A stretch of 13,403 nucleotides of DNA, from IMG/VR virus record IMGVR_UViG_3300006072_001582; one strand, 5' to 3'. Positions within the stretch are counted from its first letter, which is position 1. Each line of letters opens with the position of its first letter. Below the pieces are notes generated by a model. That model was not told the DNA's origin, did no database searches, and saw nothing but the letters and a program-made list of their open reading frames with translations. A program made the translations under genes and the position numbers. Source of the DNA: a virus. Positions 864 to 4,191 of the stretch are shown piece by piece.

Positions 864-901
864 TTTAATCTCTTTCTAATGCATAGGTGTTGGGTTGCTG
901 C

Positions 902-938
902 GTACGTTCGCGCACTACTGAGTAGTACGTTTGCGCAC
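902..938. promoter_or_regulatory. two 14-nt direct repeats, gtacgttcgcgcac at 902-915 and gtacgtttgcgcac at 925-938 (one mismatch), flanking a small palindrome actacTGAgtagt at 914-926. They are a candidate operator or protein-binding site in the divergent intergenic region.
   Basis: The repeats are read directly from the sequence. The centre-to-centre spacing of 23 nt is about two helical turns. A third partial copy, tgtacgg, sits at 944-950. The location is between the divergently transcribed minus and plus gene blocks. Confidence 0.3.
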
Positions 939-1289
939 ACAGCTGTACGGTGCTGTAGTTCAGCAACATACAGGTGATTGCTAGGACCATGAGTTCTCAG
1001 CCTCACTTGGACATTGTGCCCAAGGACGCAAAGAAGTTCATAATCTTTTGCTAGCGTGTAACTAACACGCAATCCAAGGCGTGAAATAGGATGGTAGGTT
1101 TTGCCATTTCCAGAACTAAAGGGTTTTAGAGGAGTGCCTTGAGAGGGGCCTAAAAGGCTCTGTAAGGCTCGCCAATAGGGGTCCCAATGGGAGCGTATAG
1201 AAACGCCTTTAAAAAATGGCGGGCAGCCCTATGGGGTATTCGATAGAGCAGGCGTTGAGATCGTACTGGTAAGAATTAAAAATGCCGGA

Positions 1290-1416
1290 GGCCTTGGCCA
1301 CGTATGAAATACTAGGTGCACTAAAGTAGATAGAAAAAAAGAGAGAATAATGTAAATACATATAGTTCTTGGTATAGGGGATAGCAATCGTTCTACTATC
1401 TACAAAGGGCTACACC
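1290..1416 (+). promoter_or_regulatory. AT-rich leader region, probably carrying the promoter for the plus-strand gene block
   Basis: GC content drops sharply here (gaaaaaaagagagaataatgtaaatacatatagttcttggtatagg), immediately upstream of the first plus-strand gene. No perfect -35/-10 pair was identified by eye. Confidence 0.25.
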
Positions 1417-2082
1417 ATGGCACAATTCAACGACTGGTCAAAGAGCTACCAGAACTCACTTGGCAATGCAAAAATGGCGGCGATTAGAATCGCTGAGAAT
1501 AGATACCAAACGCGTGATGAATACGAAAAGAACAAGCCTAACGTCCCTAATGCAAGAATGGTTGATGAAGTCCGTAATAACCACAATGACGTTATGGACA
1601 GCATTGGGAAGTTCCAGCAAGGCGTTGGCAAAATTAATGAGATGCACCAAGAAGTACTGAAGCGCACACAACCAGGCGTTAACCAAAAGAGCCTTGTGGA
1701 ACACTATAGTGATCTTATGGAAAAGCATTTCCCCACAGAGCAGACAAGCACAAAGAGCAAGGCTCCTCAGACAAACATTAGCAAAGAAGTAACAAATCCT
1801 AACGTTCCTCTTAATTCAAGAGTGAAAATGATGCAAGACCCAGACACTAAGTACGACCCACAAGTCTACAAGCACGTTCGCGATGTGCCACCACTTAAGC
1901 CTAAGAGTGCTTCTTTCGCTGAGCGTTACGCCAACGATAACTCAATGGGGGAAAATAAGCCTATGGATGGGCACATCCCAGGCAATTCTCGCTACTGCTA
2001 CAACTGTGGAAACACCCAAGACATTGTTTGGGACCCAAGTCAAGAATACGGTACTGGATGGATTTGCCGTGGTGGTTGCTAA
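1417..2082 (+). CDS. hypothetical protein (221 aa) with a C-terminal zinc-ribbon-like motif (CYNCGNTQ...WICRGGC). Its N-terminus (NDWSKSY) resembles the WSKRYAAE motif of the 4188-5202 paralogs.
   Basis: Long ORF, the first in the plus-strand block. Cys motif is C-x2-C-x17-C-x3-C at the C-terminus. The minus-strand overlapping ORFs (1446-1667, 1456-1728) look like shadows. Confidence 0.7.
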   Translation: MAQFNDWSKSYQNSLGNAKMAAIRIAENRYQTRDEYEKNKPNVPNARMVDEVRNNHNDVMDSIGKFQQGVGKINEMHQEVLKRTQPGVNQKSLVEHYSDLMEKHFPTEQTSTKSKAPQTNISKEVTNPNVPLNSRVKMMQDPDTKYDPQVYKHVRDVPPLKPKSASFAERYANDNSMGENKPMDGHIPGNSRYCYNCGNTQDIVWDPSQEYGTGWICRGGC

Positions 2083-3376: not shown

Positions 3377-3769
3377 ATGTCAAACAACTGTGACTGTGAA
3401 ACTTGCAAGAACATAGCAAAGTACAGTGATACTACAGAGAAAAGTGCATATGTCTCCCGGTTTAAGGAGAGTATTGCCCAGATTTCCTCTCTTTCAGATG
3501 ATTTCTCCATCGATAAGCCAAAAGATGACGATGAAGACCACACTTATCGTATTAACGTAAGTGAATACTGTCAGCATGACGGTGTTTTTGTAGAATATTC
3601 AAGAGAAATCACCTTTTCTGCTTTCCAGATGATCATGGAAGAGCTTTTTTCGTCAGATGAAGACGATTTTGACCTAGATAACGACGAATATGAAGATGAT
3701 ATACGCGTTTTTGGCAGTTTAGACGAAGTTATTGACTACCTTCAGCAAGATAGAAGGGAAAAAGACTAA
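3377..3769 (+). CDS. highly acidic small protein (130 aa) with an N-terminal C-x-C-x2-C motif and Asp/Glu-rich C-terminal half
   Basis: The ORF follows the promoter and RBS above. It reads MSNNCDCETCKN..., then DDDEDH, SSDEDDFDLDNDEYEDD. The stop overlaps the next start (TAATG at 3767-3771). Confidence 0.75.
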   Translation: MSNNCDCETCKNIAKYSDTTEKSAYVSRFKESIAQISSLSDDFSIDKPKDDDEDHTYRINVSEYCQHDGVFVEYSREITFSAFQMIMEELFSSDEDDFDLDNDEYEDDIRVFGSLDEVIDYLQQDRREKD

Positions 3770-4191
3770 TGACCGTCGAAGAACACGACCAGAACATCAC
3801 TCATCATTACACCGTTCACTATCCACCTCACCCAGAGCGTGAAGATGACCCACATTACGTCGATTTTCACCATTTCCGTGAGAAAACGAAGGCAACAGCT
3901 AAATGTGCTATCGGTGAACACCGCAATGACTTCAGTGAGTGCGACTCTGAGCACCCTTTGGAGCTTCACCACACTCATATTGAGTTCTCATTGCAGAATG
4001 GCGTCGATCTTAAGTGGCTCGAAGTCGATTACCCCGGCGTTAGCGACCCAGACACCGTTGGTGCATGGGTAGAGAGCGCAACAAACCTGGAATGGCTATG
4101 CCTTTTCCACCACAGAGGTCATGGTGGCAAACACGTCACAGCTTACAGTGACTTTGAGGCAGCAAAATACGTGAGAGGACTCATCAAATGA
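3769..4191 (+). CDS. His-rich HNH-like nuclease fold protein (140 aa)
   Basis: The sequence ...CAIGEHRNDFSEC...LELHHTHIEFSLQNGVDL...ATNLEWLCLFHHRGHGGKH fits the HNH pattern: C...C, HH, N, then N-L-x-x-L-C-x-x-H-H...H. It is translationally coupled at both ends (TAATG at 3767, ATGA at 4188). Confidence 0.55.
   Translation: MTVEEHDQNITHHYTVHYPPHPEREDDPHYVDFHHFREKTKATAKCAIGEHRNDFSECDSEHPLELHHTHIEFSLQNGVDLKWLEVDYPGVSDPDTVGAWVESATNLEWLCLFHHRGHGGKHVTAYSDFEAAKYVRGLIK

Follow-up and report, generated by a model that had tools for sequence, protein, structure and literature searches.

A conserved strand-switch region in an uncultured freshwater phage family as a candidate control region for divergent early genes

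Results

The analyzed DNA, a stretch of 13,403 nucleotides (nt) from the virus record IMGVR_UViG_3300006072_001582 (hereafter the window), carries three leftward genes at its left edge, followed by at least 18 closely packed rightward genes; a family could be assigned to almost none of them. The two arms are separated by a strand-switch gap at positions 864-1416, which is bordered by a gene for a 61-amino-acid (aa) membrane protein on the minus strand (678-863) and a gene for a 221-aa protein on the plus strand (1417-2082, gene 1417). The right part of this gap, from about position 1000 onward, is conserved across a family of uncultured phages and is described here as a candidate control region.

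The gap had caught the attention of a first-pass annotation of the same sequence, and its length was confirmed: with 553 nt it is the longest in the window, the next longest measure 165, 109, and 106 nt, and the majority of genes directly adjoin or overlap each other. The accompanying transition from GC-balanced to AT-rich DNA is real, but moderate rather than sharp, with the GC content dropping from 0.475 (864-1290) to 0.373 (1291-1416) and amounting to 0.345 for 1301-1416. Two 14-nt direct repeats around a palindrome were found where the annotation had placed them, and none of 300 shuffles of the gap gave a comparable repeat (14 nt with at most one mismatch, within 60 nt). The GC hairpins that had been singled out, in contrast, do not exceed dinucleotide shuffles in stability, with z-scores of -1.8 for 1138-1168 and of +0.13 (plus strand) and -0.43 (minus strand) for 1270-1306. 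Finally, the annotation had dismissed what it regarded as the only long open reading frame (ORF) of the gap (860-1072, 70 codons, minus strand), and had overlooked an ORF of 41 codons on the same strand (865-990).

Relatives were collected through homologues of the 221-aa protein, homologues of a 140-aa protein encoded further downstream, and exact-pattern scans for the most conserved 19-mer of the gap (block A, Table 1), and chance pattern matches were removed by BLAST. At least 17 distinct related metagenomic lineages carry the element, all of them with a long strand-switch gap at the same position. The gap of the window aligns to these relatives only rightward of about position 1000, with a DNA identity of 70-80%, and the adjacent 221-aa protein is 31-67% identical or undetectable. 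The stretch from block A to block B is the sole DNA similarity outside protein-coding genes to the distant lineages L016 and L184, and the only match to L139, whose sequence covers only about 1 kb to the right of block A. The equally distant L185 gives no blastn match at this stretch, yet both blocks are readable in its sequence. As DNA similarity to the distant lineages is restricted, over the whole locus, to a few core genes and blocks A-B, the comparison indicates that purifying selection acts on the conserved part as strongly as on the best-conserved proteins. The first-pass annotation had itself named conservation of the spacer among related genomes as one of the points on which its proposal would turn; the right two-thirds are conserved in position as well as sequence, but the left part with the repeats is not.

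Blocks A, B, C, E, and M1 are confined to the element within each 7-14-kb locus, and no motif of the element recurs within 10 kb on either side. Indels and rearrangements in 1134-1270 distinguish the lineages from one another. Among 50,697 GenBank phages, no relative was found by near and distant DNA searches or by tblastn with the 140-aa protein, so that there is no annotated homologue of the region to borrow from.

The features of the gap are compiled in Table 1. Block A shows 0-2 mismatches in all lineages of the family, occurs once per 10-14-kb locus, and varies mainly at two positions (C/G at 1039 and T/C at 1044). Its use as a -10 element or as a symmetric bidirectional -10 element was rejected because the key T (1044) is a C in about half of the lineages, and for a -35 element of block B the spacing is wrong. 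In nearly all lineages, motif Z lies 16-37 nt to the left of block A, in relatives as AAGTAAGG or AACTAAGG, and AAGTAAGG also heads the plus-strand block B in many relatives. A hairpin in the 32-nt spacer is seen in the window, but its enrichment fails shuffling across 16 lineages (mean z = -0.7 on the plus and -0.5 on the minus strand).

Table 1. Features of the strand-switch gap and of the adjoining 5' end of gene 1417 in the window.
Feature	Position	Strand	Sequence	Remarks
Possible 41-aa ORF	865-990	minus	MVLAITCMLLNYSTVQLCAQTYYSVVRERTQQPNTYALERD	lineage-specific left part of the gap; contains the 902-938 repeats
Direct repeats	902-915, 925-938		GTACGTTCGCGCAC, GTACGTTTGCGCAC	flank palindrome TACTGAGTA; third GTACG at 946
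Motif Z	1001-1010	minus	CCTCACTTGG, reads AAGTGAGG	leader region of the first leftward gene
Block A	1031-1049	plus	AAGAAGTTCATAATCTTTT	nearly invariant AT-rich 19-mer; candidate protein-binding site at the center of the divergent region
Spacer	1050-1081			exactly 32 nt in the hand-counted lineages; sequence variable
Spacer hairpin	1054-1059 / 1065-1070		GCGTGT/ACACGC	z = -2.5 in the window
Block B	1076-1102	plus	AAGGCGTGAAATAGGATGGTAGGTTTT	-10-like hexamer TGAAAT at 1082-1087
Site 1	1103-1133	plus	GCCATTTCCAGAACT, then AAAGGGTTTTAGAGG	module M1 in the window, with TTCnnGAA dyad
Variable G-rich core	1134-1270	plus		hairpin 1145-1161; GCGT/ACGC hairpin 1193-1206
Inverted motif	1173-1186		CAATAGGGGTCCCA	within the G-rich core
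A-tract and GC hairpin, copy 1	1208-1229		TTTAAAAAATGGCGGGCAGCCC	insertion/duplication relative to other group-1 lineages
A-tract and GC hairpin, copy 2	1276-1300		TTAAAAATGCCGGAGGCCTTGGCCA	universal terminator-like element; on the minus strand, hairpin then T-run
Site 2, module C	1305-1328	plus	TGAAATACT (1305-1313), TACTAGGTGCACTAAAGTA (1310-1328)	extended -10-like sequence overlapping an operator-like dyad
Block D	1349-1356	plus	AATGTAAA (TGTAAAAT in group 2)	-10-like on plus; TTTACA, -35-like, on minus
Block E	1373-1384	plus	TATAGGGGATAG	part 1373-1416; followed by the leader and ribosome-binding site (RBS) AAAGGG (1404-1409) of gene 1417
A-tract and hairpin, third copy	1470-1493		AAAAATGGCGGCGATTAGAATCGC	inside the 5' end of gene 1417

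The -10-like hexamer of block B takes the forms TAAAAT, TATAAT (L167), TATACT (L024), and AATAAT (L033, L180) in relatives, and TAAAAA in L016, L051, L133, and L185; the A at the second and the T at the sixth position are kept in most of these forms, but not in the window or the TAAAAA lineages. A small conserved ORF starting from AGGATGG in block B was discarded because of frameshifts and a start codon absent in six lineages. Further to the right, two sites are occupied by interchangeable modules, namely M1 (GCCATTTCCAGAAAC) and C (TGnAATACT overlapping the dyad TACTwAGTGCACTAAAGTA). Site 1 is M1 in most lineages. The window, L007, L012, and L024 combine M1 at site 1 with C at site 2; L011, L033, and L180 carry C at both, with TTGAATACTwGGTGCACTAAA at site 1; and the shorter elements of groups 2/3 carry M1 at both. 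The sequence TGnAATACT is present in seven out of seven group-1 lineages, and the distance from the end of the upstream A-tract to the hexamer is 24-27 nt in each of them. In relatives, AGTGCACT forms an 8-bp palindrome, of which the window retains GTGCAC. In lineages that carry module C there as well, the AATACT of site 1 follows the A-rich hexamer of block B at a distance of approximately 25 nt. This distance resembles the one between the A-tract and the AATACT of site 2, and the region therefore has the appearance of two tandem units of the same design.

Block D is invariant in group 1, and its group-2 version TGTAAAAT lies 16 nt upstream of block E; in L012, block D overlaps a leftward promoter-like TTGACT-16-TATACT. 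Within the G-rich core, the 14-mer TGGGACCCCTATTG is found on the minus strand in the window and on the block A strand in relatives, and the GC skew of the core ranges from +0.09 to +0.29 on the plus strand in 16 of 16 lineages. A poly-G tract of 7-8 G was noted downstream of site 1 in L016, L075, L122, L157, L184, L185, L133, and L065; even very close relatives vary in the length of this tract (G8 in L075, G7 in L122 and L157), which could reflect real slippage or an assembly error. No ORF is conserved in frame across 1000-1416, and such an ORF is excluded by frame-breaking indels (non-multiples of three) together with a T-run whose length varies between 4 and 5 among lineages.

Promoters of T7/T3-type RNA polymerases were considered as well, as CACTAAAG (module C), ACTATAGG (block E), and ATAGGGAGA (block B of some relatives) resemble them, but were ruled out: the upstream halves share nothing, and the motifs show the lack of recurrence described above. 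An attP core was also considered; no integrase was found among the neighboring proteins with Pfam and PHROGs.

Each of the 16 lineages compared has an A5-A8 tract with a GC hairpin behind it, and the stem sequences differ yet stay complementary (GGCTC/GAGCC in L012, GGGCT/AGCCC in L024, GGGGC/GCCCC in L180, GCCC/GGGC in L051). The third copy behaves likewise, with GCGAT/ATCGC in the window versus GCAGT/ACTGC in L011, that is, two compensatory pair changes within coding sequence. Most lineages have a T-run behind the hairpin on the plus strand; the window, L007, L011, and L180 are the exceptions. The A-tract and hairpin of relatives have RNAfold energies of -6 to -17 kcal mol−1. A terminator scan called 1493-1480 on the minus strand of the window, and in relatives it called the element only in L139 (plus strand). 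Strong leftward terminators called in L012 and L033 sit outside this element, in an insertion between module C and block D.

This C-D insertion occurs in three related lineages (approximately 83 nt in L033, 105 nt in L012, and 114 nt in L024; coordinates 3555-3670 in L012 and 5955-5990 in L033) and is absent from the window. It combines the leftward TTGACT-16-TATACT (10/12 matches, L012) with a strong leftward terminator (12-13-bp stem and T-run), which makes it a candidate antisense small RNA (sRNA) gene of approximately 80-100 nt. In L012, it is flanked by two copies of block D.

A structured non-coding RNA, which the first-pass annotation had also suggested for the gap, did not emerge from any of the searches. 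Rfam (4227 models) gave no match in the whole window at gathering thresholds, and only a 14.5-bit chance match to a trypanosomatid small nucleolar RNA (gathering threshold 50 bits) for 800-1500 at E-values up to 10; ARAGORN found no transfer or transfer-messenger RNA gene in the window. Folding of 1087-1305 showed no excess over dinucleotide shuffles (z = -0.25 on the plus and -0.13 on the minus strand), and the z-scores of 16 lineages against mononucleotide shuffles were mostly 0 to -3, alike on both strands. With RNAalifold, four sequences yielded no consensus structure (covariation term of -0.12 for the plus and +1.94 for the minus strand), and nine lineages yielded -2.29 kcal mol−1 with eight pairs and a covariation term of +0.22, which does not favor structure. 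One of these eight pairs keeps pairing via a two-sided change, in a single sequence. Compensatory stems were found only in the terminator-like hairpin. Judged by its layout, the conserved part most likely acts at the DNA rather than the RNA level, because the spacer is fixed at 32 nt with free sequence, modules M1 and C swap between sites across lineages, the 14-mer TGGGACCCCTATTG has opposite orientations in the window and in relatives, and the A-tract with its hairpin is duplicated in the window.

With regards to the phage itself, copies identical to the window are present in several bog-lake metagenomes, with 100% identity over 601-1500. The longest contig with the gene adjoining the gap measures 131,916 bp, and the genome size of the uncultured phage is about 130 kb. 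For the 140-aa HNH-like protein (3769-4191), metagenomes contain more than 1000 homologues with 70-84% identity, and copies are also found in actinobacterial assemblies, namely a Mycobacterium interjectum contig (74%) and a metagenome-assembled genome of the Jatrophihabitantaceae (68%). Both of these loci have a GC content of approximately 67%, are non-syntenic, and lack the element. As a weak hint, these matches suggest that the host may be an actinobacterium. Pfam and PHROGs searches on 30 neighboring proteins detected no repressor, integrase, replication protein, or terminase.

Several further observations were made on the neighboring genes. The early proteins encoded at 1417, 3377, 4188, and 4834 are small and Cys-rich. 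The motif W-x-x-R-Y-A opens many early proteins, both in the window (1417, 4188, approximately 4379, and 4834; MSNWSKRYAAE, MNWKRRYAAE, MSWSERYAAR, and MAQFNDWSKSYQN) and in L180, L184, L185, and L139 (with starts in relatives such as MPFIPDMWERRYAS, MPFTKDKWSYRYAN, and MNWNQRYAND). On the left arm, a direct repeat of approximately 47 nt, atcgttgttacttccttcatagtgtcctcctcaggactggtttagtt, is present at 101-147 and 549-596; read on the minus strand, it comprises a leader, a strong RBS (GAGGAGG), and the 5' coding end (start and first approximately seven codons, MKEVTTI) and heads two consecutive leftward genes. One leftward gene, at 200-568 on the minus strand, encodes a 122-aa alanine-rich, coiled-coil-like protein made of 21-nt tandem repeats (period 21, 9.9 copies). 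The number and versions of such repeat genes vary among relatives, and the left arm differs even among strains with identical right arms. A second conserved non-coding piece lies at 598-672, in the 109-nt gap between the 61-aa and 122-aa genes, with 94.7% identity to L012 (2699-2773) and 87.5% to L011. Finally, the 106-nt gap downstream of gene 1417 (2083-2188) contains the hairpin CCCCTTATaacATAAGGG. As a closely similar sequence is located behind the first gene of L167, conservation may extend to this gap as well.

Discussion

We read positions of approximately 1000-1416 as a region that controls, at the DNA level, the divergent arms of early (host-takeover-type) genes, an interpretation to which we assign a probability of about 0.5, and we infer its promoter, operator, and terminator roles, as well as protein binding at block A, from the sequence. 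Gene 1417 and the operon behind it would be transcribed rightward from at least one promoter with little or no -35 element. The best-supported candidate is site 2 with its extended -10-like TGAAATACT (1305-1313), and the A-tract ending 24-27 nt upstream of its hexamer would take the position of an UP element. A second promoter-like core may be provided by blocks D and E (1349-1384). The predicted rightward leader would be approximately 50-100 nt long and end at the RBS of gene 1417 (1404-1409). The dyad TACTAGGTGCACTAAAGTA overlaps both the site 2 hexamer and the predicted start, a layout expected of an operator for a dimeric regulator. An upstream unit of the same design would consist of the A-rich hexamer of block B followed, after approximately 25 nt, by site 1, with block A placed exactly 32 nt before it. 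Block A itself could be bound by a conserved protein, of phage or host origin, that organizes or regulates both divergent units. The three A-tract and GC hairpin copies (1208-1229, 1276-1300, and 1470-1493) are putative intrinsic terminators, which would end leftward (antisense) transcripts in every lineage and, in most relatives with their T-run, also rightward transcripts from the upstream unit. To the left of about position 1000, the remainder of the gap (from 864) would hold either a lineage-specific small gene or strain-specific binding repeats. The first-pass annotation had assigned divergent early promoters and their operator to this gap. Promoter-, operator-, and terminator-like elements are indeed found in the conserved right two-thirds, but a role of the 902-938 repeats as the operator is not supported, as they sit in the lineage-specific left part and relatives do without them.

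A number of results weigh against this interpretation. A promoter scan of 500-2300 (-35 and -10 elements at a distance of 16-18 nt with at least 9/12 matches) returned one site where 2.2 are expected by chance, and this sole site in the gap, TTGAGA-17-AAAAAT (1255-1283), is weak and coincides with no conserved block. No candidate -10 element is accompanied by a conserved -35 element; promoters of the likely host may do without them. The hexamer of block B has no A at the second position in the window (TGAAAT) and no T at the sixth in four lineages. Block A, on the other hand, is far more invariant than ordinary promoter elements, and the function given to it here is a guess. No leftward promoter can be defined in the element, the window yielded no promoter from which transcripts would reach the leftward terminators, and no DNA-binding regulator was recognized among the neighboring genes. 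In addition, the window's own hairpins (1284-1299 and 1221-1229) reach only -5 to -8 kcal mol−1 with z-scores of about 0 and were not called by the terminator scan; copy 2 (1276-1300) lies at -5 to -6 kcal mol−1. The consistent G excess of the plus strand is left unexplained by a control region.

For the left third of the gap (864-990), it is conceivable, though we consider it doubtful, that the DNA is not regulatory at all but a small 41-aa gene whose translation is coupled to that of the 61-aa membrane protein; in that case, only 426 nt of the gap would be truly non-coding and the 14-nt repeats would be incidental. A Shine-Dalgarno-like GAGG lies 10 nt ahead of the ATG of this ORF, its stop is 1 nt ahead of the ATG of the 61-aa gene, the leader motif AAGTGAGG precedes it, and gene callers predicted it on four contigs among the identical copies. 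Small genes also occupy this position in relatives, for example a 44-aa basic peptide with a strong RBS that is conserved between L016 and L075/L105/L122 with amino-acid substitutions. However, a search of 5.8 billion proteins returned no diverged homologue, the sole match being the ORF itself, and BLASTP found no similarity to the small ORF that occupies this position in L011. That lineage shares the DNA patch GGTGCTGTAGnTCAnCAACA with the left part of the window, which otherwise does not align to relatives. The repeats, which were not found in relatives, are spaced by 23 nt, so that their copies fall in different frames of the ORF, and all six contigs carrying it are 100% identical, which leaves no substitution pattern to test.

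For the conserved part, we regard it as somewhat unlikely that the series of block A, block B, site 1, G-rich core, and A-tract serves as an R-loop origin with the 19-mer as initiator site, or that a new phage leader RNA or sRNA, acting by sequence and not by structure, is encoded from block B to the hairpin. A replication origin, possibly transcription-primed, would have block A and the other unique motifs bind an initiator and the A-tracts serve as the unwinding element, and transcription from a block B promoter into the G-rich non-template stretch would yield a stable RNA-DNA hybrid. Such an origin would suit motifs that are unique to each locus, a nearly invariant 19-mer, universal A-tracts, the plus-strand skew seen in all lineages (+0.09 to +0.29) with G7-G8 runs in relatives, an element placed precisely at the divergence point of two gene arms, each at least 11 kb long, and a tolerance for varying motif copy number and orientation, as known from origins. 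We nevertheless judge it unlikely, given that conserved iterons are lacking, direct repeats are limited to the lineage-specific pair at 902-938, the gap contains no tandem arrays, no replication genes were recognized within 10-12 kb on either side, and the G content is below that of typical R-loop-forming sequences. The combination of conserved direct repeats and an AT-rich unwinding region that marks iteron-type origins is not found in the gap, although A-tracts are present. The change in GC skew is not independent evidence for an origin either, since it coincides with the coding-strand switch.

Quite unlikely, in our estimate, is a non-coding or cis-acting leader RNA of approximately 120-210 nt running rightward from block B to the A-tract/hairpin terminator, either as an sRNA or as an antitermination or attenuation leader ahead of the early operon. 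The order of -10-like hexamer, conserved stretch, and hairpin with T-run in most relatives would fit, the G excess permits G-U pairs, plus-strand folding energies are lower than those of the minus strand in most lineages, and the sequence is better conserved than the neighboring genes. Against this stand the empty Rfam result even at the relaxed E-value, folding z-scores (about -0.25 in the window) that are alike on both strands, and the lack of supporting covariation in nine lineages. The modules are, moreover, inverted, swapped, and duplicated between lineages, and the window's own lineage combines a degenerate block B hexamer with a missing plus-strand T-run. Many contigs stop within approximately 1 kb of block A, including contigs of 79, 116, and 123 kb, which could point to a physical genome end, terminal repeat, or packaging site, but this is extremely unlikely: L001 runs through the element, L016 has a contig of 137.6 kb with the element approximately 41 kb inward, the 122.8-kb contig has its initial 40 nt only once and a related contig has them internally, and no terminase gene is nearby. 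A genome terminus with direct terminal repeat was rejected, as no terminal repeat was found and other contigs pass through. Repeats in the flanks (the 47-nt repeat, the 21-nt tandem repeats, and shared 5' ends of paralogous genes) would break assemblies, and the contig ends near block A probably result from such repeats or from hypervariable flanks. The frequency of these ends (L051, L105, L133, L065, L180, L167, L139, and the window) is far above chance.

Members of the phage family abound in freshwater metagenomes, including those from bog lakes, with contigs of up to 137 kb; the family has no cultured or annotated relative and encodes early genes of almost entirely unknown function. The conserved module with its 19-mer, 32-nt spacer, interchangeable modules, and terminators could serve as a handle on the regulation of this family, and its motifs could help to find further members, to pull down regulators, and to target the search for transcription starts or an origin in metatranscriptomes. 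If the element is only a promoter/operator region, it would represent ordinary biology in an unexplored phage group.

Comparison With Known Systems

Transcription-primed (R-loop) origins are known from ColE1 (RNA II) and T4 (oriF/oriG). The element would share with them its uniqueness in the genome, its location at a divergence point, and a promoter-like sequence followed by a G-rich non-template stretch and A-tracts, but its G density is modest and there is no known initiator or primase context. The A-tract, compensatory GC hairpin, and T-run of most relatives resemble bidirectional rho-independent terminators; in the window lineage, however, the plus-strand T-run is missing, the hairpins are weak, and no leftward promoter was recognized upstream.

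Tandem early promoter clusters with terminators are found in T7 (A1-A3 with TE) and in the terminal-redundancy module of SPO1. The region described here differs from these in its poor fit to the sigma-70 consensus, in motifs that do not recur within 10 kb on either side, and in its location at no demonstrated genome end. Common to both are tandem promoter-like cores that precede an extended series of small, closely spaced, functionally uncharacterized early genes with strong RBSs, and interspersed terminators, which are putative in the present region.

Divergent phage early control regions include PRM/PR with OR of lambda and Pe/Pc of Mu with its central site for integration host factor (IHF). 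No repressor, Cro-like, or DNA-binding gene was recognized near the present element, which also differs from these regions in having no array of identical operators, candidate promoters without -35 elements, an unusual length of approximately 400 nt, and terminator-like hairpins. Compared with the IHF site of Mu, block A fits the IHF consensus only loosely, on the reverse strand and with 11-12 of 13 positions when aligned by eye. The likeness to lambda and Mu lies in an intergenic region between oppositely transcribed early genes, in promoter cores overlapped by a dyad together with a central conserved site at fixed spacing, and in the conservation of this region while the flanking early genes diverge.

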